From positions 160,001 through 224,000 of IMG/VR virus record IMGVR_UViG_3300037851_000542: 64,000 nt of DNA, one strand, 5' to 3'. A program made the translations under genes and the position numbers. Of this stretch, positions 2,830 through 58,796 are shown one piece after another. The notes below the pieces were generated by a model. It was not told the origin of the DNA, ran no database searches, and worked only from the letters and a program-made list of their open reading frames with translations. The stretch comes from a virus. Taxonomy: Duplodnaviria > Caudoviricetes. Position 1 is the stretch's first letter. Every line of letters starts with the position of its first letter.

Positions 2830-4293
2830 TTATGACCAGATTGAAAGAGGGGTTCTCTTCCAGCTATCTGTGCCAACTGCGATATATAGATAATCGTCTG
2901 ACCATCTAAGTTCTCCTTCTACACCAGAAGCAGATATTGAAGCAGGTTCTGCTCCAGAAGCTGTAGCTAGTCCGTTAGAGGCAGTAGTGAATCCAGTAAA
3001 TGTCTTATCTCCTGCTACACTTTGGTTTGTAGTAGTTTTAACAATACCACTTAGGGCTATTGTAACTTCGTTAGCACCTGCGCCTGAAGTAACTACAAAT
3101 AAGTCAGCATCAAAGTCAAATGTTTGAACCGCACCATTAACTGTTACGTTACCTTCTTGTACAATAACTGTAGCTGCAGATACTTGAGAATCTACATACT
3201 GCTTAGTTACTGCGTGTCCGGAAGCCGTAGGATCTGCGTGTAGAGTTAGGAATCCAGTCATTGTATCGCCAGAAACATTTACGAACTGTCCTTCAGCGAA
3301 ACCTGAGTAAGTTGCAATAGAGCTGGTTGTGAACGAGTTTGCTGTAGCAACTGCGTCTCCAGAAATAGTTACAATCTCAGTAGTGTCGATAAAGTGACCT
3401 TCAGCGAAACCTGAGTAAGTTGCAATAGAGCTGGTTGTGAACGAGTTTGCTGTAGCAACTGCGTCTCCAGAAATAGTTACAATCTCAGTAGTGTCGATAA
3501 AGTGACCTTCAGCGTATCCAGAGTAAGCTAGTAGATCAGCGCTGCTTGCTACACCTGTTAGGGTTATAACGGCTTCGCCTACACCAGAAGTTACGTTAAA
3601 GAATACTGCTCCAAAATCTAGTGAAGTTACAGAAGAGTTAACGCTTACGTTATCTTGTTGTACACCTAGAGTCAAGGAAGAAGCTAGATAACTAGAAGCT
3701 GCTAAAAGTTCAGAAGCATAAACAATATTATCAATAGCGTTGATAGTAGAACCGCTATCAGCTGTGAATCCAGTAGCCCAATGATCAGTGCTTTCATTCC
3801 AAAATAAAATAGAACCAGAAGAGGTTCCTCTTTCTACATAGAACCCTGCGTTAAGAGTAGGAGTTCCACTTGCATTTGTGTTTAGTCCAATAATGTTATC
3901 TTCAACCAATAGTGTTTCAGAAACAAGCAGACTTACGCCGCTTACTAGTGTAACGCTACCGTTAAATACGGTCTCCCCTTGGAAAGTTTTATTTCCAAAA
4001 ATCTCTTGGTTGGTGTTAGTGGTTACTAGTCCGGACACACCAACATTAGCTTCGCCTGTTGGAGATTCAGATACAGTTAAGTATTCACCAAAATCAATTG
4101 TACCAACGTTGAAAGTACCAGCGTCGTCTTTTTTAACAGAGAGTGGAGTAGAAGATCCACTGATTGTAAAAGCAGCGTTAGTTTTACTAACACTAATCCC
4201 ACCTGTTCCTGTAATTGTCAAATTGTCTTCTGTAAAGTTACCAGAAGCTACTCTATCTATACGTAGAGATCCGTCTGCTAATGTAATTGGCAT
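2830..4293 (-). CDS. Fibre-like virion protein
   Basis: 487 aa with common phage fibre motifs: NQEIFGNKTF / NQSVAGDKTF, VEDNIIGLN...ERG...WNE, SGDTMTG.LTL...HAVTKQYVD, and C-terminal G..GELRW.DDYLYI...WKR. Confidence 0.75.
   Translation of the reverse strand: MPITLADGSLRIDRVASGNFTEDNLTITGTGGISVSKTNAAFTISGSSTPLSVKKDDAGTFNVGTIDFGEYLTVSESPTGEANVGVSGLVTTNTNQEIFGNKTFQGETVFNGSVTLVSGVSLLVSETLLVEDNIIGLNTNASGTPTLNAGFYVERGTSSGSILFWNESTDHWATGFTADSGSTINAIDNIVYASELLAASSYLASSLTLGVQQDNVSVNSSVTSLDFGAVFFNVTSGVGEAVITLTGVASSADLLAYSGYAEGHFIDTTEIVTISGDAVATANSFTTSSIATYSGFAEGHFIDTTEIVTISGDAVATANSFTTSSIATYSGFAEGQFVNVSGDTMTGFLTLHADPTASGHAVTKQYVDSQVSAATVIVQEGNVTVNGAVQTFDFDADLFVVTSGAGANEVTIALSGIVKTTTNQSVAGDKTFTGFTTASNGLATASGAEPASISASGVEGELRWSDDYLYIAVGTDSWKRTPLSIWS
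3290..3514. repeat. Perfect in-frame 108-bp tandem repeat (2 copies plus 9 bp) inside the fibre gene
   Basis: Units start at 3290, 3398 and (partial) 3506. Encodes 36-aa EGHFIDTTEIVTISGDAVATANSFTTSSIATYSGFA twice. Confidence 0.95.
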
Positions 4294-6830: not shown

Positions 6831-8723
6831 TTATGTCTCAATGGGACTGTTTAATATCCTCACTTCCACACTATCTCCAGGGTATAATGGTCTAGTAAGT
6901 GTATTTAAAGCTTCCATCTGACCAAACCCATCGACTTGAACAATAAACTGACCTGCTGAATTATTTCCCGCAACTATTACACCCCTGCGTGTTAATGTTT
7001 CTGTTCTTTTAACATACTGGGAGTCATTAAAAGATTGTACTGAATAATACTTAGCTCCTGTAGTAATGCTAGTCGTAAAAGAGTTTTGATCTGAATATGT
7101 GTGTTCTATAGAAAGTACTACACTATTGTCTAGTAAATTTCCAGGCATTATTGTGTAACCACCTGTAGTATAAGTTTTAGTTATAGTTTTACCTTCTTGT
7201 TCTGAGTTTACAGAATCAAATAGTGCTCTAGAAAACTCTGCTGCGCCTGCTCCTTCAAATATAGGCAAAGTTATATCTATAATACTACCTTCCATAGAAT
7301 CTAAAACAGAATCTACCACTGTAGGATTTGTTTCTTCATCGTAAGGTCTAGGTACGTCAATTAATGTACCATTTACTGCTATGGAAAGTGGTTTTGATTG
7401 CACTACGATAGGAGTCATATAAATACCCTGAGTGGCTATAGCAGCAGCTTGTAAAAGAAGATTTGAATTTTCTGATTTTAGTGAAATAGAAGGTCTTTGG
7501 ACTGTATAACTAAAAAGTAGACTAGTTGCGAGTTCATATCCAAAACTAGTACCTAATCCTTCGACTAGATCAGCTGGAAAAGCTCCTATAGCAAAGGCAT
7601 CTCCGTTTAATGAGAGCCCTTCTCTTCCACCTCTAGTATTTACAGCTATTGCGTCGCTAAAACTCTCAACTCCAGGTCCACTGCTTCTAAAAGTATATAA
7701 ATTAGATCTTATAAGTGGGTCTAAAGCCCTTCTGGAAATATCATTGCCAGTGCCTCTTGCTATAAGTACCTGTACCGAACCGGGAGCCGATCCTGGCAGT
7801 AAGAACCAATTTTGTCCTCGTGATAATTCATTTAGTCCATACTCTGGCGCAAGTAATACAAAATAATCATTTTCTGTATAAGTGAAACCCGCTGTGATAC
7901 CTCCAGCTGCTATAATAGAAGGTCCGTCTTGGATATCAAGTATTGGTGCTCCAATTGCGGTAATTCCACCTATATCTACAATATTTGCGCCTGCAGATAT
8001 TGTCCTTTGCGAAGTAAAACCTCCAAGATAGTCTATATATAAATTTCTGGGAGTAGTGGCGCTTAGACTAAAACTAACACCTCCAGGTATGGGTGGCAGA
8101 TGCATCTGATACCCAATTAATGATTCCCAATCATCCCTTCTTACTGCGAATTGAAGTTGATTTTGAATTACTGAATCCTGGGGTGAATTATTAAATTCAA
8201 CCCACAAACTTTCATATAGATTAGATTGCTTATTCCAAGGTACTGGAAAACCACTTAATGGGTACTGTGGATGGATTCCCAGTGCTCCGTTTGTAGCGTT
8301 AACACTTGGCTTACTATACTTTATAGGTAATGGTTCTCTTCCTCTAACTACTACATAATCAGTTTTTGGAGAATTCTCGTCTGTAGCTTGTTCTGCTATA
8401 CACGTTCCGGTCATCTCAACTGTATCAAAACCTACTTTAACTGCCTGTATAGTACCATCTGGATCAGAGTACACTTCTGTTAAATTTAAAGGATCGGCTG
8501 CTAATAAAGATAACCTTAACATAGTAAAGGCATCTTGTGATTTTATATCATATCCTGCTAACCCGTGACCTTCGGTTACATTATGTGTAATGCCAAATTT
8601 ACTCAGAATAAAAGAAGCCAATGATGTTTTAGGTATTAAATTACCTTCAAAAGATACGTTGTTTGTACCCCAAGAAGGAAAAGATGAATTTTGTAATCCT
8701 GTAAAGTTGGATCCCTGTGCCAC
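6831..8723 (-). CDS. Tail hub / Tal-like protein with a possible C-terminal OB fold
   Basis: 630 aa directly after the tape measure. EVYSDPDGTI and DYVVVRG are hub-like; C-terminal RGVIV...FIVQVDG...LYPGDSVEV is OB-like. Confidence 0.5.
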   Translation of the reverse strand: MAQGSNFTGLQNSSFPSWGTNNVSFEGNLIPKTSLASFILSKFGITHNVTEGHGLAGYDIKSQDAFTMLRLSLLAADPLNLTEVYSDPDGTIQAVKVGFDTVEMTGTCIAEQATDENSPKTDYVVVRGREPLPIKYSKPSVNATNGALGIHPQYPLSGFPVPWNKQSNLYESLWVEFNNSPQDSVIQNQLQFAVRRDDWESLIGYQMHLPPIPGGVSFSLSATTPRNLYIDYLGGFTSQRTISAGANIVDIGGITAIGAPILDIQDGPSIIAAGGITAGFTYTENDYFVLLAPEYGLNELSRGQNWFLLPGSAPGSVQVLIARGTGNDISRRALDPLIRSNLYTFRSSGPGVESFSDAIAVNTRGGREGLSLNGDAFAIGAFPADLVEGLGTSFGYELATSLLFSYTVQRPSISLKSENSNLLLQAAAIATQGIYMTPIVVQSKPLSIAVNGTLIDVPRPYDEETNPTVVDSVLDSMEGSIIDITLPIFEGAGAAEFSRALFDSVNSEQEGKTITKTYTTGGYTIMPGNLLDNSVVLSIEHTYSDQNSFTTSITTGAKYYSVQSFNDSQYVKRTETLTRRGVIVAGNNSAGQFIVQVDGFGQMEALNTLTRPLYPGDSVEVRILNSPIET

Positions 8724-32838: not shown

Positions 32839-34875
32839 CTATGCATCGTTTTCCATATTATTAAATATATAGTCTATTAATTCCTCTTTTGTCATATCAT
32901 CAAGGCTTGCTCTAGATACAGGTTGCTGCGAAGCTGCAGGGGGCTTAGTTTGCCTAGTTACTGTCTTTGCTGGGTTAACAGGAGCTTTAGGCATTGTAGG
33001 CTGTGACTTAGGTCTTCCGTCTGTTACATTAGTTTGTTGAAAGGGACTGCCTTGTATTCCTATACCTTCATTAATTAAAATTTGATGTTCTGCTCTCATT
33101 TTTTCTAATTCAGATTTAGGATCTAACCCTATTGCGAATTGCACTGTTTCTCTAGAGGCAATTTGCCTATCAGCTAGTTGCATCCAAGTAGCTTTGGTTA
33201 CCGCATCGGAATCTGTGGTAATTTTAGTATTTTTCCACCTAACTACTGGAAAAGTAGAAAACCCAGCTTGAATAGCTATATTTCTATACTCGGCATATAC
33301 CCAATTAGATACAATTTCTCGTGCAGCATCTATCTCACTTTGGAGGGCTTTAGATGATAAAATACCCGCTGCATTTGTAATAGTGTGTCCGTCTATCAAA
33401 GCTCTAGTTATACCTAATGCTGCAGTAATATCTAAATTAACTGGTTCATATTTTTTTAAACCAAGTATTTCTCCAATCTCAGGGTTGGTAATTTTCTCTA
33501 TATTTAATGCGTGATGCCATACTATTGTAAAAGCTTTTTGAGGTGTATCAAAAGCTTCAGCCATTGCCTCTAGTACTGAGAGGTCAGTTACAGGATTATC
33601 TTTATCCCCTACAGTGACTTTTAAAATTTGATTAAATATTCCATCTAAGGTGGCGTAATCTGCTTTTATTAACTCTTCTTTATAATCAAATGAATCAAAT
33701 GCTCTGGACCCTTTTGGCTTTGCATATATTTCAAAGTCGTTTTTTCTTAAGTATATGGTACTAATAAGATTATCTTTGTCTATGTAATCTTCTGCATTTT
33801 TAGCAGCTGCTCTAATTTTACTAGGAATTAACTTTAGTATTTCATTTTCTTTTTTACTGATCTTTCCTTCTTGCTTTCTTTCTTCTAAGTCTGCTATACC
33901 TTTAAGTGCTGAAGACTTTAATACAAGTGTTTCCCCGCCAAAAAATCCAGTACTCAGTATTTGGACCTGTTTAGGGTCCAGTATAGTGTATGACAGTGGA
34001 ATATTTGATACACTGGCGTTCTCTTGTTGAGCAGCTCTTGTTATAGCAGCCTCTATGTGTTTATCACTTACTAAGTGCCCTCTGTCAGCAAAATATTTAG
34101 ATATTAATTGTTTAGCTTTTTCTCTGGTTTTTGAGTTTGGCTCTTGTCCTGGTAAAGAACTTACATTGTTAGCATTCGGCTCATAAGCCCCAAGACCTGG
34201 CAATATATAGACGACAGAGTATTTAAATAGATTTTGAAATATTTTAACAATTACGCTTTGAAAATTAGTGTCTTGCGCCCAAGCATCATAGAATTGTTTT
34301 ATCTCTAGATCCGCTACTTCATTATGAAATCCTGTTGCTGAAAAATTAGATAAAATATCCAGTGTAGAGCCATAAATACCAGTTTTATAGTATTCGTCTT
34401 CGGATCTTTTATATAAATCTAAAGCCCCTTGAGAGTCTGGGGTATCTCTTCTAAGGTCTAGGTTAGTCTTATCTAGTTTGTCTCTATATCGTTGGTCTAA
34501 GGAGGCTGCTATTTCTAAGTTTGAATTAACTGAATCTACTGTATCGAATACTTTATTTAAATCCTTATTATTTTTCTTTGCCTCATCAATATCTTTTAAC
34601 CCTGCCAACTTTATCTTATTTATGGTCTCTTTAGTTCTTCTGCTGGCATATTTACCAAATAAAGAATTGGGATTAACATCATAGCTTTTAATTAGCTTCT
34701 TTACATTATTTTTGTCTAGGTTGAACAGTTCTCCAACTTTTTTATCTTTAATACCAACAGTAAAGGAATACTGACCTTGATCTACTTTTTTAAGATCACT
34801 AAAGGCTACCTTACCAGAAGATATACTATTAAGTCTATTTTGTATTTTTAATAAGCTATCTTCTTCTTTTACCAT
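32839..34875 (-). CDS. Portal protein
   Basis: 678 aa directly after TerL; ILKVTVGD..P, long helical region, Pro-rich tail. Confidence 0.8.
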   Translation of the reverse strand: MVKEEDSLLKIQNRLNSISSGKVAFSDLKKVDQGQYSFTVGIKDKKVGELFNLDKNNVKKLIKSYDVNPNSLFGKYASRRTKETINKIKLAGLKDIDEAKKNNKDLNKVFDTVDSVNSNLEIAASLDQRYRDKLDKTNLDLRRDTPDSQGALDLYKRSEDEYYKTGIYGSTLDILSNFSATGFHNEVADLEIKQFYDAWAQDTNFQSVIVKIFQNLFKYSVVYILPGLGAYEPNANNVSSLPGQEPNSKTREKAKQLISKYFADRGHLVSDKHIEAAITRAAQQENASVSNIPLSYTILDPKQVQILSTGFFGGETLVLKSSALKGIADLEERKQEGKISKKENEILKLIPSKIRAAAKNAEDYIDKDNLISTIYLRKNDFEIYAKPKGSRAFDSFDYKEELIKADYATLDGIFNQILKVTVGDKDNPVTDLSVLEAMAEAFDTPQKAFTIVWHHALNIEKITNPEIGEILGLKKYEPVNLDITAALGITRALIDGHTITNAAGILSSKALQSEIDAAREIVSNWVYAEYRNIAIQAGFSTFPVVRWKNTKITTDSDAVTKATWMQLADRQIASRETVQFAIGLDPKSELEKMRAEHQILINEGIGIQGSPFQQTNVTDGRPKSQPTMPKAPVNPAKTVTRQTKPPAASQQPVSRASLDDMTKEELIDYIFNNMENDA

Positions 34876-37372
34876 TTCTTCCTTTATTACCGTTTTTTAT
34901 AATTATACCGCCATTGGGAATAACAGTTTTAGATACCGTATTTAAATTTAAATTTAATTCCTCTGAAGACAGCGCAGATCTTGGCATTAGTTTACTATTG
35001 AATATAGTATTACCTGAAGATTTGTATTTAGCTCTTAAATCTGTCAGGTCCTCTGTCTTAATAATACCTTGACTTACTACCTTCCTTTCTTCTTCTATGT
35101 GTTTAAATGATAGTTCGTAGGCACAACTTCCTGCCAACATTAGAGCAGTATATAAATCTTTTCTTCTTACTTGAAGGTTTGCCTTATTTTCATACCCACG
35201 AGATCCTGCACTTTTTGGAAGATCGAATCTCAAGCTTCCTGATGCGTTAGGTGTTATTACTATGCTCGCCGCTTGATTTATCATTAATTGAACTAAGTCT
35301 ACGGTTTTTTTAGTGTCAGACTTCTTTACCGAAGTTTGAACCTCAGCTTCTATAGGGTTTGTAGAGTCCGGAAACAATAATGCCCTTTGTTCCAGTAGTG
35401 TTTTTGTATTATTATTTAACTCAGCCCATATGGTAGGGCTAAAGTCTACTAGTCTTAAAATTTTCATTCCGGATTGCTGGTGATTAGCATCTTCAGATAT
35501 AACTTTTAAAGAAGGTGACATACCAACAGATTGAGGATCTAATAAGTAATCCTTTAACGAGGTACCTCCTCCTCCCGCATCCATATAAATTTTAATAGGT
35601 CTAAACTTATTAATTAGCTCTAAAAGGTGTCGGGCTTGATCAGGAAAAGCGGTACTTTCTAATTGTGCTAAGTGTATTAAATGATTTGGGTACCCAAGTC
35701 GAATTACCACAATAGCTGTTGCATCCCTATCTCTGGCTACGTCCACTCCAAATATATACTGACTCTTACCGCTTGGATCTCCAATTTGAGTTGGAATAAC
35801 TGTCTTATCCCTACACCCATCTAGCAAACTCATTGGAAAAGCTCCTGCGCTATCACCTACCCATTCAGCGCACCACTCCGTTTTAAATACGTGATCTGGA
35901 TCGTTCTCCCGCGCAGCTTGTACAATTTCCTGAGAAAGAAAACCTTCAGGCAAGTAATGATAAGGAATAAAGTTTAAATTATATTTTTTATCTCCATTTT
36001 TTATATTCTTATAAAATGTACAAATTTCTTTCCACCAGTAATTAAATTGATAATAGCCTGAAGTTACTCCAATATAAGAGTTACCACTTATTAAGGAGCT
36101 TTCTGGTACTTTATCCCCATACTTCTCTCTAAGCTCTTTAATTCTTCTAACGTTTTCCATAGGATTGGAATCCGTAGACAGTATAGGTCTTATTGCTGAT
36201 CTAAATATATGCTCTGGGAGTTGGGCAATCTCATCGAGCAATATTAATTGGGCGCGTTCCCCTCTTATCTTACTTCCGTCATTTCCCACTGGTAATGCTT
36301 TTAAAATACTTGGTGGTTGTCTTCCCACTCTTCTAGTGGCGCAATATGCAGAGTCTGTTCTTATGCTGGGTCCTTTGGCATCTATGCATTCTTGCAGGAA
36401 AGGACTCTCGTGATATAACTTTTCAAACTCCGCAAATATTAATTTTGATTGCCTAAAGCTTGGAGCAAATACACATATGTTTGTACCTGGATAGAGCATC
36501 ATTCTAAGGGCTAAGTAAAGAGCAGAGAGAAATGTATTGTGTGTTACTATATAGTTATCTACTATATAAAGACCCTCTGGGTCTTCTATCATAATGCACC
36601 TACCTGGTTTGGATTCTATTGGAAGTACTTCTTTTATATATAAACCTGATATCTCATAGGAGTCTTTTAAAATAACATCTAAGTCTAAATTAGTGTCGTT
36701 TTCTCTTGTAAAAATAGAGCATACGTGACCTAGCGACCATAATTTTTTCTGAACCTCTAAGGCTAGATCTTTAGTTAAATTTTCATAATACCCTGAACAC
36801 AAATAAGAACAATTTAAAGATTTCTTTATAAACTCTTCTGTTTCTTTTTTATCTATCGTCGGTAAATCTCCGACTAAAGGTATATAAACATCTGCTCCAA
36901 ATTCAATAAGAGTTTTTATTTTTTCTGTTGTTAGAACCTTTTTATTAAACTCATTAAAGACTAACCATTGATGGTCCTTGCAAGCTTCAATTTCCCTGCC
37001 GTCTACAAATACTACTTTAAACATTACAGGGTTAGATTCGCAGGATATATTAACTATTTTTGATTTATTACCTTCTGGGGTAATAACCTCATCACCAATA
37101 TTTAGGGTATCAATTCTTTTAAATCCATCCGGAGTTAAAACATTAGTACTGTCCGATAATAGCTTTCCAAATCCCCGACTAGCAGTTAATACACAAAATC
37201 TACCATTCCACCAGTCTAGTAATACTTTTTGCTGAATAGCTGGTAAAGTTACTGGTTCACTTTGCCTTACTAATAGATGATTAGCTGCTATAATAGGGTT
37301 AGTCCTATAATAGGAAATTAGTCTTATAAAATCATCGCTGATTAGATTAGGATCTGGTTTTATTAAAATCAA
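34856..37372 (-). CDS. terL: Terminase large subunit, intein-containing
   Basis: Walker A SRGFGK|T split by an intein; Walker B LILLDE; RNase H-like nuclease FGVDVAR, IYMDAGGGG, KDLY. Confidence 0.95.
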   Translation of the reverse strand: MILIKPDPNLISDDFIRLISYYRTNPIIAANHLLVRQSEPVTLPAIQQKVLLDWWNGRFCVLTASRGFGKLLSDSTNVLTPDGFKRIDTLNIGDEVITPEGNKSKIVNISCESNPVMFKVVFVDGREIEACKDHQWLVFNEFNKKVLTTEKIKTLIEFGADVYIPLVGDLPTIDKKETEEFIKKSLNCSYLCSGYYENLTKDLALEVQKKLWSLGHVCSIFTRENDTNLDLDVILKDSYEISGLYIKEVLPIESKPGRCIMIEDPEGLYIVDNYIVTHNTFLSALYLALRMMLYPGTNICVFAPSFRQSKLIFAEFEKLYHESPFLQECIDAKGPSIRTDSAYCATRRVGRQPPSILKALPVGNDGSKIRGERAQLILLDEIAQLPEHIFRSAIRPILSTDSNPMENVRRIKELREKYGDKVPESSLISGNSYIGVTSGYYQFNYWWKEICTFYKNIKNGDKKYNLNFIPYHYLPEGFLSQEIVQAARENDPDHVFKTEWCAEWVGDSAGAFPMSLLDGCRDKTVIPTQIGDPSGKSQYIFGVDVARDRDATAIVVIRLGYPNHLIHLAQLESTAFPDQARHLLELINKFRPIKIYMDAGGGGTSLKDYLLDPQSVGMSPSLKVISEDANHQQSGMKILRLVDFSPTIWAELNNNTKTLLEQRALLFPDSTNPIEAEVQTSVKKSDTKKTVDLVQLMINQAASIVITPNASGSLRFDLPKSAGSRGYENKANLQVRRKDLYTALMLAGSCAYELSFKHIEEERKVVSQGIIKTEDLTDLRAKYKSSGNTIFNSKLMPRSALSSEELNLNLNTVSKTVIPNGGIIIKNGNKGRNGKRRR
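36536..37162 (-). mobile_element. Class 3 mini-intein (209 aa) in the TerL Walker A
   Basis: Residues 71-279. Starts LLSDSTNVLTPDG, ends IVTHN|T. Has the W (DHQW), C (GRCIMI) and T (VTHN) triplet; no intact LAGLIDADG motifs. Confidence 0.9.
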
Positions 37373-38686: not shown

Positions 38687-38744
38687 AAATGTTAATTAAA
38701 TACTATAGATTTAATTATACATATCCAAGAGGTACTTACATAAA

Positions 38745-41355: not shown

Positions 41356-42180
41356 CTAATCTATAGTTAAATTAACGGGTCCTTCTACTTTGCTTATAAA
41401 TACCTGGTTCTCATAATGAGAACTAGGTTTACTATTAGAAGTTTTAAATTGACTTACTCCGTCTGTTTTATAGTAAATAACTTCTGAGTCTTTATAAATT
41501 ACAACAGGCTCTATACAGAAACACATTCCTTCTTTTATAGGTACTCCTTTTTGAGGAAAACCACAACAAGGTACTATTGGACTTTCGTGTAAACTTAGTC
41601 CTATTCCGTGTCCAGTAAAAGCATTAAATGTTTTATACTTTTTACTTAGGATCATAGTTTTATTTATGGCATAACCTATGTCACCTATTGTAGGATCTTT
41701 TATGCTGCAAATACTATTAAAGGCATTATTAAAGGACTCAACAGAAATATCTATAATGCCCCGATGATTATTTATATCTTCTCCAACAATATAAGTTCTA
41801 GCACTGTCGGAACAGAAGCTATTATACTTAACCCCTATGTCTATGGATAAAACATCCCCATTCTCTAGCAGTCTATTATTAGGTAGCCCGTGAACTAAAT
41901 CTTCATTATTAGAGGTACACAAAGTAAATGGAAAAGGAGTAGCCTTAGGGTGATCCTTATAGTTTTTAAATAAAGGTTCTGCTTTATTTTTTATAATTAA
42001 ATCTTCAGCTATTTGATTTAACTCTAAAGTAGTGATTCCTATTTGAATAGATTTTTCTAGTTCTTTTCTTACACTAACTAAAATGTGAGCAGATTCTTTA
42101 AAATAAGGTAAACACTCTTCAGAATATATATGTGTACCATCACCTAAGATGCTGTAGGTTGGTTGAGCACCTGAAGACAT
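41356..42180 (-). CDS. map: Type I methionine aminopeptidase
   Basis: HGLP, IDIG, SDSART, GHGIG...HE.P, IEP, HYE: all metal and substrate residues present. Confidence 0.95.
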   Translation of the reverse strand: MSSGAQPTYSILGDGTHIYSEECLPYFKESAHILVSVRKELEKSIQIGITTLELNQIAEDLIIKNKAEPLFKNYKDHPKATPFPFTLCTSNNEDLVHGLPNNRLLENGDVLSIDIGVKYNSFCSDSARTYIVGEDINNHRGIIDISVESFNNAFNSICSIKDPTIGDIGYAINKTMILSKKYKTFNAFTGHGIGLSLHESPIVPCCGFPQKGVPIKEGMCFCIEPVVIYKDSEVIYYKTDGVSQFKTSNSKPSSHYENQVFISKVEGPVNLTID

Positions 42181-42199: not shown

Positions 42200-43252
42200 T
42201 TAAAGACCAGCTTGCTGGGCGATCAAACAACCTTCTGCTACTGCATTAAGCGGATCAGAAGCGTGCCTAACTTCTTTTACTTGAAAAGGTAGCCTATGGG
42301 CATTTCTATCGAACTCTTTTTTAAACTCTGATAGAAAATTAATAGCCTTTGATGTGCCACCTGATACTACAACTGTTATTGGTTCTTGGTACCTTGGAAC
42401 ACTATCTAAGGAGTTTACTTTTGTTACTATAGCTTCTACTGTATACTTAATTAAGTTCTGGTAATAAATTGCAATTGCCTGTTTGGTCCTATCTGATTGA
42501 GCTAAATCACTTATATCTACCCCTCCTTCTTTTACCAAAGTAACTAAAGCAGGAGTAATCTCACTATTCTTAGGATCTTGATCGTCATAACCTAGGGATA
42601 CTGCTACTGAGGTGTCAATGTAATCACCACCAATTGAAGTTGCAAAACTAGCCATCTCTTCAGCGTTAAATGCTAGACAGATGTTAGCCATACCTGCTCC
42701 AAAGGATACTGCCATACCTGTGTAGTTCTCCTCTCCTAGATTGGAAAGTACAATAGCAAAAGCTTCATTTATTGGAGAGCCCTCATAGCCTAACTGCTTG
42801 AGTATAGAATTAATAGCACTTGTGTGAAACACTTCATCAAACTTTGCATCAATCGGCGAAGCAGGCACGCTGTATACAACTTTTTCATTTGGAGTAACGG
42901 GCTCTCCAAGAAGTTCTCTTAAAAGTGCTGTAAACATTGGTAACGCTTTTGTCTCTTTTGGAGAGATAACCCCTTTAGCGAGAGGTCTCCTTAAAACCAT
43001 ATTTTTTACTACTGCTTGATTCAAACTCTCATCTCCAATCACTTGGATTGTACCGTCGTCCATTTCGAGGTAGTTAACTCCGGCGTCTTTGAAGCCTTTA
43101 ATCATAATGGTTTTAACAAGTGGGTTTGAAGGTCTCATTTCTAAAAAAGCATCCCTAACACTTTTTGTAGTTGTATTACCTTGTTCATCAACGCTAGCTA
43201 CAACTAGGAAACAGGTGCCTACATCTAGTCCCAAATTTGGCGTTCTAGTCAT
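42200..43252 (-). CDS. Actin-like ATPase (MreB/MamK-like)
   Basis: GLDVGT (phosphate 1), RRPLAKGVI, INEAFA, SFGAGMANI (phosphate 2), IGGDYID, VVVSGGTS (adenosine), DPLNAVAEG. Confidence 0.9.
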   Translation of the reverse strand: MTRTPNLGLDVGTCFLVVASVDEQGNTTTKSVRDAFLEMRPSNPLVKTIMIKGFKDAGVNYLEMDDGTIQVIGDESLNQAVVKNMVLRRPLAKGVISPKETKALPMFTALLRELLGEPVTPNEKVVYSVPASPIDAKFDEVFHTSAINSILKQLGYEGSPINEAFAIVLSNLGEENYTGMAVSFGAGMANICLAFNAEEMASFATSIGGDYIDTSVAVSLGYDDQDPKNSEITPALVTLVKEGGVDISDLAQSDRTKQAIAIYYQNLIKYTVEAIVTKVNSLDSVPRYQEPITVVVSGGTSKAINFLSEFKKEFDRNAHRLPFQVKEVRHASDPLNAVAEGCLIAQQAGL

Positions 43253-43841
43253 CTTCTTCTATACCTTCTTTTAGCTTCTTGAGTTTATTTAATTTATCTT
43301 GAATATTTGAACCAGATCTAGACTCTATAGTAACATTAGTTTTAATTTTATCCAAATCTTTTATATCACTTGGGTTTATAAACACGTTATCCATTACTAC
43401 ATTTAAATTATTTTTGGAGGCAACCTGAGTAACACTATCTGAAACTATTGTTACAGGTGTAGATGCTATGTTTTCTAGCTTTTTAGTTATTTCTGCTAGA
43501 ACAAGCATCATATCTTGACTGTTTGTAGTAGGAGGTGTATTAGTACCGTGTACCTGTGAAACTATCTCGTGTATCTTATTATAGTTAATTATATCAGCTT
43601 GTTGGTCTTTTAAATCATTATGAACAGATTTAGTTAACTGGTTTACTAGGAACCTTATTGCCATCCCTTGACCAACACTGTTGGACTTTTTTAAGTTAGC
43701 GCTTATTTTTTCTAGTATGTGACTGTATTTATATTCTTCTATAGTTTTTAACTCTATAGCCTTCTTTAGTTTTATAAGCACACTGACATCAATACCCAGT
43801 TTAACTAAAGATTCAATCAGCTCTTCAATATTTTGTCCCAT
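43245..43841 (-). CDS. Helical protein translationally coupled to the actin-like gene (candidate adaptor)
   Basis: 198 aa; 8-nt overlap with the actin start (GATGACTAG); C-terminal amphipathic IQDKLNKLKKLK. Confidence 0.6.
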   Translation of the reverse strand: MGQNIEELIESLVKLGIDVSVLIKLKKAIELKTIEEYKYSHILEKISANLKKSNSVGQGMAIRFLVNQLTKSVHNDLKDQQADIINYNKIHEIVSQVHGTNTPPTTNSQDMMLVLAEITKKLENIASTPVTIVSDSVTQVASKNNLNVVMDNVFINPSDIKDLDKIKTNVTIESRSGSNIQDKLNKLKKLKEGIEEDD

Positions 43842-44704
43842 TCCATTAATAATTTAAGTAATTTTATATCAAAACTACTTATTTCCTTATTTTTTAATAA
43901 ATCGTCAACCTTGGCATATAAGTCGCATAGATCACTTAAATCTATAGTATTTAAAAACTTATCCAAGCCATAAAAGGCAAAGTCTGGGTATTTCCAGTAT
44001 TTTCTAGTCTCTTCTTTATCTCTTGTAAATTTGTAAACTATTGTTGAGTAAAGCCTTTTAAGTACTAAAGGGAATACTACAAACTCATTATGGTTATAGA
44101 TAACTGACTGTACTAGTCCCATATCCCTATTACCTCTGGAAAAGAGGTTATCTAGAAATTTAAATATTAAAGTATTATCTGACACTTCGGGCAGTAAAGA
44201 TAGAGCTGTTTTTTCATCCACAATCTTTAGATAATTGGAGAATTTCTCTATTAATCTAAATAAGTCATTTCTTTTACTAATACCTGAATCTGTAAAGTAG
44301 CTTATATACTTATCGTGTAAGTTAAATTCATTAAACACATTAGTTATAAACTCTACTTTCTTTTTACCTTTTAACTCGGTTACACTTTTAATTTTAGATA
44401 TACTGTTCAAGGATTTGAAGAAGGAGGATTCTTTATTCAGGTTTTTAAATATCCAAACTAGATTGATATTCTTAGGGTACTTAAGTACAGATAATAACAT
44501 ATCGGAGTTTTTAGGCTCTATGTTATATATAACTAGGGTTTTTTTAGAAGGTATCAAAGTACTTTGATGTAACTTATAAAAACCCTCTAAGTCTAATAAA
44601 TCAAAGTTATGTATATCTAAGGTTTCAGTAGGATTATCTTGTTTATATAGAAACACAACATCTTCGTGGTCTTTAGTTGTGAATATATTTACTTTGTAGT
44701 CCAA
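43817..44704 (-). CDS. DNA polymerase III delta-like clamp loader subunit
   Basis: 295 aa; degenerate AAA-like with KTLVIYN, IFKFLDNLF and helical collar pattern; overlaps dnaX. Confidence 0.55.
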   Translation of the reverse strand: MDYKVNIFTTKDHEDVVFLYKQDNPTETLDIHNFDLLDLEGFYKLHQSTLIPSKKTLVIYNIEPKNSDMLLSVLKYPKNINLVWIFKNLNKESSFFKSLNSISKIKSVTELKGKKKVEFITNVFNEFNLHDKYISYFTDSGISKRNDLFRLIEKFSNYLKIVDEKTALSLLPEVSDNTLIFKFLDNLFSRGNRDMGLVQSVIYNHNEFVVFPLVLKRLYSTIVYKFTRDKEETRKYWKYPDFAFYGLDKFLNTIDLSDLCDLYAKVDDLLKNKEISSFDIKLLKLLMEWDKILKS

Positions 44705-45741
44705 CTCTTTATAATCTCTATTGATAGTCTTCTTAGTCTTTGTTCAGGAAAAGGTAGAAATTTTAGGTCTGAGTATACTTTTACCAGCTCATCATAAAGA
44801 AAGTCTAAATATCTTGCGCCGCTTTTTAAATTTGCTGGATTGGAAGGGTCTAATAGGTTATTTGATGTTAGAAACTCAGCTAAGTCTTTTGTTTGCCCAT
44901 TATAGTTTTTAGAACTCAAGTTAAATCTTAACTCTATTATAAATTTCTGTAACTGTAATATTGTGTCCAGTGGGTCAACTCCATCTGAACAAAAAAGGTC
45001 TACTGCCTCTACTAATTTATAAAAGTCCTTTAAAAAGCAACTTTTAATAAAATTATCTATAATTGAAAAGTCTAAAAATCCTATTATTTTAAGTATATCT
45101 TCTTCAGACTGGGCAAATGACTGCGCTGTTTTTATTTTCTGTAAGTCTACTATTGCATTTCTAAGAGAGCCTCTACTTTTATCAATAACGCTATGAAGCA
45201 GGTAATCACTTAATTTAATATTTTCAGTTACTGCTATTTCATTTAACTTTAGTATTAAGTCCTTATTAGGTATAGGTAAAAATTTATAATCAGCGCTTCT
45301 TGATTTTATAGAATCTGGTATTTTAGAAAAGTCTGAGGTTACAAATATAAAATAAACGTGGTCTGGGGTTTCTTCTACGGTTTTTAGTAGACCATCAAAG
45401 GCTTTATTTGGAATATTATGAGCTTCATCAAATATATAAGTCTTTATCAGCCCCTCAAATGCATAGTTTTTGACTTCGTTTTGAAGTCTCCTAGTAAAGT
45501 CAACATTTGCCTCTACCGTACAATCTTGTTCTAAGGTACCGGTATCACTTGGATTTAGAGTGCTGGCAATTATACGAGCTACTGATGTTTTACCTGTACC
45601 AAACCCACCGTGAAAGATTAAAGAGTGAGGAAGTTCATTATTTTTTAATTGATGACTAATAAGCTTTATAATATGATCTTGACCAACAATCCCTGAGAAA
45701 TCAGAAGGTCTATATTTATTATAGAGAGTACTTTCGGACAT
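44689..45741 (-). CDS. dnaX: DNA polymerase III gamma/tau-like clamp loader ATPase (gamma length)
   Basis: LYNKYRPSDF..IVGQDH, GGFGTGKTS.ARI, IFDEAH, AFDGLLKT.EE.P, IKSRS. Confidence 0.92.
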   Translation of the reverse strand: MSESTLYNKYRPSDFSGIVGQDHIIKLISHQLKNNELPHSLIFHGGFGTGKTSVARIIASTLNPSDTGTLEQDCTVEANVDFTRRLQNEVKNYAFEGLIKTYIFDEAHNIPNKAFDGLLKTVEETPDHVYFIFVTSDFSKIPDSIKSRSADYKFLPIPNKDLILKLNEIAVTENIKLSDYLLHSVIDKSRGSLRNAIVDLQKIKTAQSFAQSEEDILKIIGFLDFSIIDNFIKSCFLKDFYKLVEAVDLFCSDGVDPLDTILQLQKFIIELRFNLSSKNYNGQTKDLAEFLTSNNLLDPSNPANLKSGARYLDFLYDELVKVYSDLKFLPFPEQRLRRLSIEIIKSWTTK

Positions 45742-55044: not shown

Positions 55045-56019
55045 ATGAACCTTACTAAAAAAAGAGTAGCATTTAAACCTTTCGAGTATCCTGAAGTTAC
55101 AAAATACAAAGATGCAATAAATCACAGTTATTGGTTAGTTAGCGAGTGGAATTTTATTAGTGATATTCAAGACTTTAATGTAAAATTAAATAATCAAGAG
55201 CGTAATGCAGTTAAAAATACTTTACTTGCTATATCCCAGATAGAAGTATCAGTTAAAAGATTCTGGACTAATTTAGGTAAATGGTTTCCTAAACCAGAAA
55301 TAGAGCAAGTCGGAGTTACTTTTGGTGAATCTGAAGTAAGACACGCAGATGCCTACTCACATTTGTTAGAAGTGCTGGGATTAAACGAAGACTTTGACCT
55401 GTTGTTGCAAAATCCTGTTATTCAAGGCAGAGTTCAATACTTAACTAAGTACCTTAAACAAGCAGCAGATACTGATACAGAAGAGTATACTTTAACATTA
55501 GCTTTATTTTCTATTTTTATTGAAAACGTAAGTTTATTTTCGCAATTTGCAATTATTAAATCATTTAGTAAACATAAAAATCTGCTAAAGGATATTGATA
55601 ATGTTGTGCAAGCCACACAACAAGAGGAATTAATCCACGCCCAGTTTGGAGTCTACTTACTAAAACAAATTAAAAAAGAATTTCCCAAATGGTTTGACGA
55701 AGATTTTTATAAGAAAATATATAGAGCAGCTAAAAAAGCTTACCTAGCCGAAGAAAAAATATTAGACTGGATATTTGAAGAAGGAGAACTCAGTTTTCTT
55801 TCTAAAGATGTCTTAAAAGAGTTTATTAAAGACAGAATCAATAAAAGTATAGTAGAATTAGAGGGCGAGCCTGTATTTGAAATTAATCAAGATTTGCTAA
55901 AACAATTAGAATGGTTTAATGAAGAGATTTATTCCCAAGTTAATAGCGACTTCTTCTATAAAAAACCTGTCACCTACAGTAAGAAAGTTCAATCAATTAA
56001 AGAAGAGGATTTATTTTAA
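55045..56019 (+). CDS. nrdB: Class I ribonucleotide reductase beta subunit (class Id-like)
   Basis: Ligands E67, E97/H100, FIE, EELIH; Y104; K71; C-terminal ...DFF...Y...DLF. Confidence 0.95.
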   Translation: MNLTKKRVAFKPFEYPEVTKYKDAINHSYWLVSEWNFISDIQDFNVKLNNQERNAVKNTLLAISQIEVSVKRFWTNLGKWFPKPEIEQVGVTFGESEVRHADAYSHLLEVLGLNEDFDLLLQNPVIQGRVQYLTKYLKQAADTDTEEYTLTLALFSIFIENVSLFSQFAIIKSFSKHKNLLKDIDNVVQATQQEELIHAQFGVYLLKQIKKEFPKWFDEDFYKKIYRAAKKAYLAEEKILDWIFEEGELSFLSKDVLKEFIKDRINKSIVELEGEPVFEINQDLLKQLEWFNEEIYSQVNSDFFYKKPVTYSKKVQSIKEEDLF

Positions 56020-58796
56020 TGTCGAAAGATTATGTTTGGTTAAATGAGTATTCACAACAATATTTGGAATCAGATTATTTAGTATCAGGACAGTCATTAG
56101 ATGAAAGAGTAGACGTTATATGTCAGACTATTGCAAAAATACTTGGAGATAAGCTCTCTATTGCCGATAAATTTAAAGAAAATTTAAAAAAAGGCTGGTA
56201 CTCTTTATCCACCCCTATATGGGCTAACTTTGGAACAGACAGAGGGCTTCCCATTAGTTGTTTTTCAAGTACTATTGAGGATAATATGGCGTCTATACTT
56301 TACACCAACGCTGAAGTTGGTATGATGACTAAGTATGGTGGCGGAACGGCAGCTTATTTTGGAGATCTAAGGGGTAGAGGTCACCCAATTAAGAATAATG
56401 GATATTCTTCTGGTGCTGTACATTTTATGCAAATGTTTGACTCTCAAATGAGCGTTATAAGCCAGGGATCTACTCGTCGTGGTAACTTCGCAGCTTATCT
56501 CCCCATAAATCATCCAGACATAATGGAATTTTTAAAAATAAAAAGCGAAGGGTTTTTAATTCAAGACCTTTCTTTTGGGGTATGTGTTGAGGACGAGTGG
56601 CTTCAATCAATGAAAGATGGGGACAAAGAAAAAAGAAAAATATGGGCAAAGGTGCTAGAAGTTAGAGCTAATGTTGGATACCCTTACATAATATTTACCG
56701 ATAATGTAAATAAAAATACAGCCGATGTTTACATTGACAAGGAGATGAAAATCACTCACTCAAATTTATGCATAGCTGGAGATCAAAGAGTGGTAACTTC
56801 TCTAGGTTATCTAACAGCAAAAGAGCTTTGTGAATTAGATATTCCTTTATCCTTATTTGATGGGGAAAAAGAAGTTAAATCTTCAAAAATGAAACTTAGA
56901 GAACACTCCGCAGATATATTTAAGATTACTTTAGAAAACGGTTTAGAACATAGAATAACTGGTTATCACCCTTTGCCAGTTTTAAATACTGCTACTAAGC
57001 AGATTTCTAAAACCTTGTGCCAAGATTTAAAAGTAGGAGATATAATTGCTATCCAAACTAACAAAGGTTTATTTGGAGAATTAGATATGCCTAAAGAAGC
57101 TTTTTTATTAGGGCTCTACCAAGGAGACGGTACTCAAACCAAAACAGATATAATGCTGGACCTCTGGGAAAATGATTTTGATCTAGAAAAAGAAATACAA
57201 GAAGCTTTTAATTATATTCATTTTAAATACAATTGTGATAATTACGGAGTTATTAATCAAACTGCCAGATTGGTTGGGACTAGAAGAAGAAATCCAGCTA
57301 CTTTTCATACATGTAACGCAGGACAGTCTAACGTAGCAAAAAAAAGATTAAGCTCTAGAACTTTAAAAAAAGCTCTAGATTTTAAAAAAGGAATAGTGCC
57401 AGACTGGATTTGGAAGTCTTCCGAGAAAACCCAATGGCAATACGTAAGGGGATTACTTTATTCAGACGGTACTTGCGGAATGTACAATGGTAAAGGTGAT
57501 TCGATTCAGGTTTCTCTAGCTAGTATTGATTTAACTTTTCTTAAAGATGTTCAGCTAATTTTTAATAATCTGGGATTGCAATCCTCTATTAGATTGTTGA
57601 GAAAATCAGGACAAAATCTACTACCCGATGGTAAAGGTGGAAAGAAATACTATCATACAAAGGACTGTTGGAGACTCATTGTTAGCAATAAAGCTTCCTG
57701 TATAGAGTTAGATTTAAATACGGGATTTTTAAAAAGAAAAAGCATTAACTTATCTAATAGAAAATACCGAGATAATACTAAAAAAGGTTATAAAATAAGT
57801 TCAATAATGTATGAAGGAAGAGAGCCTGTATATTGCCCTACTGTTGAGAGTGAAGATCATATATTTATCAGCCAAGGTTTCAAAACATTTAACTGTAGTG
57901 AGATCTTTTTGCCCACAAGTGCTACAGAGTCTTTTGTTTGTGATCTCTCTTCTATGAACTTACTCCATTATGATGATTGGAAAGATACAGATGCAGTAGA
58001 AGTTTTGATTTATGTTTTAGATGCAGTTATGGAAGAGTTCATAGAGAAGTCTAAAAACATTATGTTTATGGATCGGGCGCATAATTTTGCTAAAAATCAC
58101 AGAGCTTTAGGTCTAGGGGTACTAGGTTGGCACAGCTTACTACAAAGTAAAATGATACCATTTGAAAGTATGGAAGCTAAGTTATTAAATACTACAATTT
58201 TTAAGGGACTACAAAAGAAAACTCTTGAAGCCTCTCAATACTTAGCTACTATATACGGTGAGCCTAAATTATTAAAAGGGTACGGAAGAAGAAATTCTAC
58301 TACTATGGCTATTGCACCTACCAAAAGTTCTGCTTTTATATTAGGTCAAGTGTCAGAAGGTATTGAACCTCACAAGTCTAATTATTATATTAAAGATTTG
58401 GCTAAAGGAAAGTTTTCTATACGAAATGTTCATTTAAAAGATCTACTGGCATCTCTTCAAAGGGATACTTCGGAAGTTTGGGAATCTATCTTAAAAAATA
58501 AAGGTAGCGTTCAGCATTTAGATTTTCTAACTATTGAGCAAAAAAACGTATTTAAGACTTTTCAGGAAATCTCCCCGAGAGAAATTGTTATTCAAGCAGC
58601 ATCTAGACAAAAGTATATCGACCAAGGGCAGTCGTTAAATTTAATGATTAATCCTAAAACTCCAGTTAAAGATGTAAATGCTTTAATATTAGAAGCTTGG
58701 GAGTTAGGTGTAAAAGCTTTCTATTATCAGATCGGTATAAATGCTGCTCAAGAGCTTAGTCAAAATATTCTTACTTGCACTAGTTGCGAAAGTTAA
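56019..58796 (+). CDS. nrdA: Class I ribonucleotide reductase alpha subunit, no ATP cone, intein-containing
   Basis: GLPISCF, GGGT, RRG.FAAYL, SNL|CSE, AIAPT.SS, QGQSLN, FYY, terminal CTSCES. The extein is 550 aa. Confidence 0.96.
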   Translation: MSKDYVWLNEYSQQYLESDYLVSGQSLDERVDVICQTIAKILGDKLSIADKFKENLKKGWYSLSTPIWANFGTDRGLPISCFSSTIEDNMASILYTNAEVGMMTKYGGGTAAYFGDLRGRGHPIKNNGYSSGAVHFMQMFDSQMSVISQGSTRRGNFAAYLPINHPDIMEFLKIKSEGFLIQDLSFGVCVEDEWLQSMKDGDKEKRKIWAKVLEVRANVGYPYIIFTDNVNKNTADVYIDKEMKITHSNLCIAGDQRVVTSLGYLTAKELCELDIPLSLFDGEKEVKSSKMKLREHSADIFKITLENGLEHRITGYHPLPVLNTATKQISKTLCQDLKVGDIIAIQTNKGLFGELDMPKEAFLLGLYQGDGTQTKTDIMLDLWENDFDLEKEIQEAFNYIHFKYNCDNYGVINQTARLVGTRRRNPATFHTCNAGQSNVAKKRLSSRTLKKALDFKKGIVPDWIWKSSEKTQWQYVRGLLYSDGTCGMYNGKGDSIQVSLASIDLTFLKDVQLIFNNLGLQSSIRLLRKSGQNLLPDGKGGKKYYHTKDCWRLIVSNKASCIELDLNTGFLKRKSINLSNRKYRDNTKKGYKISSIMYEGREPVYCPTVESEDHIFISQGFKTFNCSEIFLPTSATESFVCDLSSMNLLHYDDWKDTDAVEVLIYVLDAVMEEFIEKSKNIMFMDRAHNFAKNHRALGLGVLGWHSLLQSKMIPFESMEAKLLNTTIFKGLQKKTLEASQYLATIYGEPKLLKGYGRRNSTTMAIAPTKSSAFILGQVSEGIEPHKSNYYIKDLAKGKFSIRNVHLKDLLASLQRDTSEVWESILKNKGSVQHLDFLTIEQKNVFKTFQEISPREIVIQAASRQKYIDQGQSLNLMINPKTPVKDVNALILEAWELGVKAFYYQIGINAAQELSQNILTCTSCES
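56769..57893 (+). mobile_element. Intein (375 aa) with LAGLIDADG homing endonuclease in nrdA
   Basis: CIAGDQRV...TGYH...LGLYQGDG...RGLLYSDG...VYCPTV...KTFN|C. Inserted just before the catalytic Cys of NLCSE. Confidence 0.95.

Follow-up and report, generated by a model that had tools for sequence, protein, structure and literature searches.

Several machines in which an actin-like protein works with an adaptor are already known, i.e., ParMR, AlpAC, MamK-MamJ, and MreB-RodZ, and many actin-binding proteins, like ParR in the case of ParM, dock into the hydrophobic cleft between subdomains IA and IIA. VolA (HVO_2015) of Haloferax volcanii, the prototype of the volactin family, forms dynamic filaments in vivo, the tips of which touch the membrane (PMC10869688), and the haloarchaeal volA gene adjoins that of HVO_2016, a CdpA-like membrane protein with four transmembrane (TM) segments (PMC12126565). 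A MamK-like, planctomycete-related actin, which we do not assign to the volactin family PF25216, forms filaments in E. coli (bioRxiv 10.1101/817700). AlpAC is an earlier example borne by a phage and has been tied to the replication of viral DNA (PMC4446434), and jumbo phages encode the cytoskeletal polymer PhuZ/TubZ, to which a role in the positioning of replication or assembly is ascribed (reviewed in PMC8314001). Here we describe adjacent genes for a volactin-family actin of 350 amino acids (aa) and its putative adaptor in a 64,000-nt stretch of DNA (the window), which comprises bases 160001-224000 of the 259,994-bp IMG/VR virus record IMGVR_UViG_3300037851_000542, estimated to be about 95% complete. 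The source is a tailed jumbo phage with a genome of about 260 kb and about 33% GC, whose record carries genes for a 2542-aa tape-measure protein, a large terminase, and a ribonucleotide reductase (RNR). With a probability of roughly 60%, we propose that the pair constitutes a volactin-type filament and adaptor tethering system, which would be made together with the replication machinery and would organise phage DNA or the sites of replication or assembly.

The window actin falls into the same Pfam family as VolA, with a full-length match to its hidden Markov model (HMM), and most phage copies lie beside a gene for a TM-anchored partner, as volA lies beside the gene for a membrane protein; the window copy differs in being phage-encoded, with 33% GC, located among replication genes, and accompanied by a soluble partner. 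With PhuZ/TubZ it would share the property of a cytoskeletal polymer encoded by a jumbo phage, whereas tubulin belongs to another protein superfamily and no tubulin gene was found in the whole 260-kb phage genome. The two open reading frames (ORFs) that an earlier note on this DNA, written from its letters alone, had singled out were both found, on the minus strand, and are listed here with the parts of the partner (positions in the window):

42200..43252, minus strand: predicted volactin-family actin-like ATPase, 350 aa (PF25216, AlphaFold2 (AF2) model, conserved motifs)
43245..43841, minus strand: partner or putative adaptor, 198 aa, overlapping the actin start; bundle, disordered linker, and C-terminal module
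43260..43409, minus strand: C-terminal module of the partner, residues ~145-194 (hhalign, module HMM, predicted interface)
43542..43841, minus strand: N-terminal helical bundle of the partner, residues 1-100 (AF2 pLDDT 77-91 over residues 1-85)

The 350-aa protein matches PF25216 ("Volactin") with an E-value of 3.4e-62 and 211.2 bits against a Pfam gathering cut-off of 35, and the match spans residues 7-345, i.e., profile positions 3-320 of 321. No other Pfam family was found at E<=0.1, including MreB_Mbl (PF06723), and no PHROG matched, while the NCBIfam MamK model NF040964 gave 25.8 bits against a cut-off of 400. The AF2 model, based on a 25-sequence alignment, is a confident actin fold (pLDDT 92.6, pTM 0.90). 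A 25-member profile retrieved MamK (8e-7), MreB (2e-5), and BeeR (3e-3) as the nearest PDB sequences and no ParM at E<=0.01; the top structures in Foldseek were also MamK, MreB, and BeeR, with 15-19% identity. The protein is thus, as far as profiles and a predicted fold can tell, a volactin-family actin-fold ATPase that resembles MreB and MamK more than ParM. An MreB/MamK-like rather than ParM-like nature had been read from the sequence before; the resemblance holds, and the family is a different one, volactin. MamK and MreB, the nearest solved structures, form filaments and work with membrane-linked partners (MamJ, RodZ); they differ from the window protein in the low identity just given, in the phosphate-2 loop, and in the long branch that parts the family from MreB.

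The actin-fold motifs noticed earlier proved to be present and conserved: across 165 aligned family members (71 phage, 16 metagenomic, and 78 cellular ones from Planctomycetota and Omnitrophota), D10-G12-T13 (phosphate-1), E163, the GGD..D block (G209-D210..D213), and G298-G299 (adenosine) are invariant, and G185/G187 is likewise kept. The phosphate-2 loop reads S-F-G-A-G...N, in contrast to D-I-G-x-G...D/E in MamK and MreB. The serine that had been reported in place of the usual aspartate is Ser183, which together with Asn190 is invariant in all 165 members, so by this alignment the serine is a trait of the volactin family and not a peculiarity of the window phage.

Relatives of the actin are numerous. 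At least 459 occur in a collection of 5.8 billion proteins, many of them on contigs of 100-470 kb, and more than 560 IMG/VR viral contigs encode a homologue, whereas the GenBank phage collection holds only two, both in uncultured huge phages (485 and 595 kb). A profile search of genome contigs with a 7-row actin alignment matched 522 loci in cellular genomes; the best 80 are nearly all from Planctomycetota and Omnitrophota, with 37-43% identity and a median GC of 63%, and include a 9.2-Mb chromosome and a 4.1-Mb contig. PF25216 scored above its cut-off in 76 of 201 sampled Planctomycetota genomes (up to 302 bits), the genomes with a volactin gene also carry a separate true MreB (about 420 bits), and tandem pairs of volactin-family genes occur in some genomes. 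In a quick maximum-likelihood tree, the cellular rows of which were the 80 best matches, with archaeal volactin left out, a long supported branch parts the volactin family from Planctomycetota MreB, which speaks against an MreB-type assignment. Seventy-seven cellular rows form one clade (support 100) apart from the clade of the window phage, and the phage rows fall into at least five deep clades, with 10 rows in that of the window (support 100).

The actin family itself is already named in Pfam and is widespread in Planctomycetota; its phage-encoded members, the conserved adaptor module, and the Planctomycetota pair were not found in the literature searched. The earlier suggestion of a distinct and poorly described actin system stands as regards the dedicated, translationally coupled partner and falls as regards the actin, which joins an existing family. 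To judge from the hundreds of phage contigs and the Planctomycetota chromosomes that carry it, the pair appears to represent a widespread module of actin and adaptor that has been little described.

The 198-aa partner has no match to a Pfam, PHROG, or NCBIfam family, and the search of the 5.8 billion proteins turned up just two relatives, with 81% and 41% identity, each on a contig that encodes a close homologue of the actin as well. It contains no TM segment. As described earlier, it is predicted to be helical with a C-terminal amphipathic helix: the AF2 model of the partner alone is all-helical, with an N-terminal four-helix bundle at residues 5-98 (pLDDT ~85-90), disorder at 127-152, and, in the C-terminal part, which is modelled with low confidence, a helix at 180-191 spanning IQDKLNKLKKLK. 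The N-terminal bundle is presumed to be the part that specifies the cargo or the site. Structural comparison gave it no identity, as the best VIA-align Z of 8.2 lies within the noise for helical bundles, and the feature scores of at most 0.80 and TM-scores of at most 0.36 against the Atlas are also noise.

The pairing is conserved. We called and clustered the ORFs of 80 IMG/VR phage loci, and in 53 of them the co-oriented gene directly 5' of the actin belongs to one family of about 100 aa, with a hydrophobic N-terminus (TM-like in 75% of the members) and a conserved C-terminal block. The net charge is -0.7 before the TM segment and +0.8 after it, which argues for an N-out/C-in topology. In most of the 80 loci the co-oriented upstream gene carries the C-terminal module, so the two genes are syntenic in the relatives. 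The upstream partners, including that of the window, have unrelated N-terminal parts and share a bipartite C-terminal signature over about 45 residues, i.e., a 'vFv(D/N)P' block with a short strand and, ~20-30 residues on, a terminal 'L.KLK.LK' helix.

The homology of these C-termini is supported by profile comparisons, in which hhalign aligned the window family C-terminus to C-terminus with the TM-anchored family (P=2.2e-4, 51 columns) and with a family of 200-290 aa (P=1.1e-5, 75 columns); a further partner family aligned in the same manner at P=2.1e-4. A module HMM, from which the window partner and its 81% relative were excluded and which included three more distant members of the same family, was run against 801 six-frame ORFs of the whole genome and matched the partner alone (E=3.2e-10, residues 145-191; next-best ORF E=0.2). 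An HMM from the TM family alone hit the same place weakly (E=0.31 among 1457 ORFs). A regular expression for the terminal helix gave a cluster-level Fisher P of 1.4e-5; it was designed post hoc and this value is descriptive. The published huge phage LR745208 has an overlapping upstream ORF of 207 aa with a similar ending, and no recognisable module was seen upstream of the more distant actin (31% identity) of LR756511.

Related pairs occur in cells. Among 80 cellular loci (L082-L161), 43 encode, 5' of the actin, an ORF of 180 aa or more that ends in the module helix; these are mostly Planctomycetota chromosomes, and the module is found upstream in most of the Planctomycetota loci sampled. On reading, the endings match the phage module, e.g., '..LF....ESN(V/I/L)..V.VK....A.GV...LAKLK.LQ'. 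The cellular actins share the Ser183/Asn190 signature with the window protein. Their partners differ from that of the window, being 200-700 aa long, with a conserved N-domain, a coiled coil whose length varies widely, and a linker rich in Gly; homology of the N-domain to the bundle of the window partner was considered and dismissed (hhalign P=0.35). No Pfam family matches the cellular partners of Planctomycetota or Omnitrophota. The consensus of the Planctomycetota N-domain is '..STS.VSL.DL.KKG.KQVKVLN...I..LI.EAV..' (e.g., G012:C116:7696-10036, G120:C10:12495-14946, and G018:C137:3928-6271). In Omnitrophota the module is carried by an ORF of about 200 aa located about 1.5 kb downstream of the actin. 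The gene that precedes the actin in Omnitrophota has a conserved coiled-coil tail of another kind, '..SLDEIRLMLADTRARAREHYYK' (L105, L106, L119, L122, L124, L135, L136, and L153, at about 7400-8200).

The module is predicted to bind the actin. When the actin and partner residues 135-198 were modelled together from our own alignments, with five rows for the partner, the complex scored 0.75 against 0.17 for the best of three controls; of 80 solved complexes 58 attain the mark used for such scores, as do 2 of 110 mismatched pairs, counts that are rough given our own alignments. Three runs agreed in at least 80% of contacts, with a partner pLDDT of at least 58, and the predicted interface, residues 160-194 of the partner, coincides with the conserved module. 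In the model, residues 165-177 run along strand 27-32 of the actin and touch 58-65 and 108-114, so a strand of the module would pair with the edge strand of subdomain IA/IB, and helix 180-194 contacts 21-27, 169-177, 196-197, and 332-348. Because Glu163 falls at the position of the catalytic Glu/Gln in the actin fold, for which we take it, we presume that the helix that follows it (169-177) and the C-terminal helix (332-348) line the IA/IIA target-binding cleft, in which the terminal amphipathic helix would sit. The prediction supports binding of the adaptor module to the actin, and it agrees with the earlier proposal, drawn from ParR, that the C-terminal helix of the partner makes the actin contact, in that the helix is both a conserved element and part of the modelled interface.

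The pair is the end of a minus-strand chain of four ORFs that overlap head to tail, i.e., clamp loader, 295-aa ORF, partner, and actin, within which no terminator-like site was found on the minus strand. The remaining genes are as follows:

44689..45741, minus strand: dnaX-like AAA+ clamp-loader subunit, 350 aa, first in the chain (PF13177, phrog_5846, TIGR02397)
43817..44704, minus strand: 295-aa ORF without family match, overlapping the clamp loader and the partner
41356..42180, minus strand: M24 methionine-aminopeptidase-like gene (PF00557 at 7.9e-38)

The overlap of the partner stop with the actin start, reported before, amounts to 8 nt (partner end GAT GAC TAG, actin start ATG ACT AGA); the partner start overlaps the 295-aa ORF by 25 nt, and the latter overlaps the clamp loader by 16 nt. 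Of the two labels that the earlier note gave to the upstream genes, dnaX is borne out (PF13177 at 1.3e-19, TIGR02397 at 1.3e-61, phrog_5846 at 2.4e-56), and 'holA-like' found no support, as the 295-aa ORF has no match in Pfam, PHROGs, NCBIfam, or PDB sequences. In L002 and L003, the nearest IMG/VR relatives, the 295-aa ORF (cluster 81) still stands between the clamp loader and the partner, in the same order.

In about 28 of the 80 phage loci a clamp loader is encoded 2-4 genes 5' of the actin, and in four phage clades the pair is located among genes of replication or nucleotide metabolism: with the clamp loader in the window's clade and in a large clade of ~330-aa actins; with gp32, RecA/UvsX, and dUTPase upstream and FEN, a DnaB-like helicase, and RNR downstream; with GMP reductase, an endonuclease, and Pol III alpha; and with ClpP and a dNMP kinase.

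On these grounds we propose that the actin most likely polymerises into filaments, to which the adaptor would bind by its portable C-terminal module of ~45 residues, while the N-terminal part of the adaptor would set the site of attachment for the filament or the filament end. In most phages the single N-out/C-in TM helix would tether the filaments to the membrane, and in the window's clade the soluble four-helix bundle would take its place. Since the pair is translationally coupled to clamp-loader genes, it would be made together with the replication machinery and could organise phage DNA or sites of replication or assembly.

Several observations weigh against this proposal. Part of the complex score may come from solved actin-peptide complexes (e.g., ParM-ParR) that the model has memorised, and the score stems from the shallow partner alignment; moreover, the actin residues at the interface are not conserved above average (entropy 2.04 vs 1.63 for all positions). 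The phosphate-2 Ser and Asn replace both acidic residues of MreB and Hsp70, so the nucleotide chemistry may differ. L002 and L003 have one or two small genes inserted between the partner and the actin, so the overlap coupling of the two is not conserved. In other clades the pair is surrounded by genes for virion-structural proteins, tail fibres, glycosyltransferases, and sugar epimerases. The tie to replication that was claimed for the locus holds for the chain in the window and for the four clades named above and fails for those in which virion and tail genes surround the pair: the only universal association is that of adaptor and actin, and the replication linkage is lineage-specific.

Four other explanations have to be weighed against a tethering system. 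The earlier note leaned towards segregation of the ParMRC/AlpAC type, in which the partner would be a centromere-binding protein like ParR or AlpA and insertional polymerisation would position the genomes. Like ParM-ParR-parC of R1 and AlpC-AlpA-alpS of CGP3, the window has an actin-like ATPase beside an adaptor gene. The complex model puts the C-terminal helix of the adaptor in the counterpart of the ParR pocket of ParM, clamp-loader genes are coupled to the pair in the window phage, and AlpC/AlpA of prophage CGP3 are needed for efficient viral DNA replication (PMC4446434, PMC5539076). Unlike in these systems, the order in the window is adaptor then actin, no sequence relation to ParM appears at E<=0.01 among PDB sequences, and the partner, the N-terminus of which is predicted to be a plain four-helix bundle, matches no ribbon-helix-helix, helix-turn-helix, or other DNA-binding family in Pfam and NCBIfam. 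No iteron, tandem, or centromere-like array was found around 38-49 kb of the window, near the operon, in line with what had been noticed before, and most homologous adaptors, at ~100 aa and membrane-anchored, are too small for a DNA-binding domain. Because most partners appear membrane-anchored rather than DNA-binding, a ParR/centromere-type machine is not indicated, and we regard segregation as unlikely. The same degree of doubt attaches to a host-takeover factor, with actin and adaptor remodelling the shape, division, or envelope of the host and not phage components. VolA is a cell-shape determinant in Haloferax (PMC10869688), in Planctomycetota and Omnitrophota the cellular homologues are encoded on the chromosome, the adaptors of most phages are anchored in the membrane, and in some clades the pair lies near glycosyltransferase genes. 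Nothing speaks specifically against this explanation, but it leaves the soluble adaptor and the clamp-loader coupling of the window phage unexplained; the molecular mechanism could be the same as in a tethering system, with the cellular target as the sole difference.

The partner could instead be an accessory of the clamp loader or replisome, with its adjacency to the actin incidental and the actin acting alone or with host factors. The overlap of its start with the 295-aa ORF fits such a role, as does its place in L002 and L003, where it stays beside the 295-aa ORF and the clamp loader, with one or two genes between it and the actin. However, these inserted genes look mobile or like unrelated small genes, the module is common to actin-upstream genes in loci without a clamp loader, including Planctomycetota chromosomes, and the complex prediction puts exactly the C-terminal module on the actin, so we find an accessory quite unlikely. 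Least probable by far is a non-polymerising actin-fold ATPase of chaperone-like or regulatory function, with the partner as its substrate or regulator: the replacement of both phosphate-2 acidic residues (Ser183, Asn190) would suit it, yet the family prototype forms filaments (PMC10869688), in fold the filament formers MamK, MreB, and BeeR come closest and not Hsp70 or sugar kinases, and the protein has kept the catalytic Glu163 along with the phosphate-1 and adenosine motifs.

If a tethering system is indeed encoded here, it would explain how volactin-type filaments are anchored and would mean that large phages without tubulin can carry their own actin-based organiser. More tentatively, and at somewhat less than even odds, the ~45-residue peptide could be a universal coupler of volactin cytoskeletons in jumbo and huge phages, Planctomycetota, Omnitrophota, and possibly haloarchaea, joined to interchangeable N-terminal parts (TM helix, coiled coil, or bundle), and the phages would then be building an actin cytoskeleton of their own as a counterpart of PhuZ. 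If the module binds as predicted, a short peptide with three conserved leucines and a defined cleft would provide a handle on prokaryotic and viral cytoskeletons.

Some further observations concern the neighbours of the pair. The M24 gene lies directly 3' of the actin, a position kept in the window's clade: its family (cluster 43) comes after the actin in L002 and in L003, and it is found nearby in L018 and L041. The genes inserted in these two nearest relatives (L002:7619-7993, L003:7187-7964) include a ~125-aa family, and L003 also has a C5-methyltransferase-like fragment that ends in '..NSVPV..'. In one large phage clade (L043, L048, L050-L055, L065, L068-L072, L077-L079), an HNH endonuclease, a secreted trypsin-like serine protease bearing a signal peptide, and an S8 protease of the subtilisin type are encoded 1-3 genes 3' of the actin, an unusual cargo beside a replication block. 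A putative second class of adaptors 3' of the actin ('cluster 1', ~250 aa) was discarded, as these members are secreted trypsin-like proteases that had been joined to the cluster only via a fused ORF call in L048/L055.

Elsewhere in the window, the 12-mer TTAAATCTATAG occurs at nine sites with at most one mismatch, against 2.2 expected, and none of 100 shuffles reached nine; two exact copies at 38703-38714 and 43936-43947 form a perfect 19-nt inverted pair 5.2 kb apart, and the motif may be a regulatory or promoter element of the phage. A 108-bp tandem repeat (2.2 copies, 97% identity, 3290-3527) lies within a 487-aa ORF (2830-4293, minus strand) that has no PHROG match. In the 925-aa RNR large subunit (56019-58796, plus strand) the family match is split between residues ~5-200 and ~590-924, which suggests an insertion of ~400 aa, e.g., an intein or other inserted domain. 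Profiles likewise match separate pieces of the 838-aa large terminase (34856-37372, minus strand), at residues 60-155 and 279-667, and an inserted element may be present here too.

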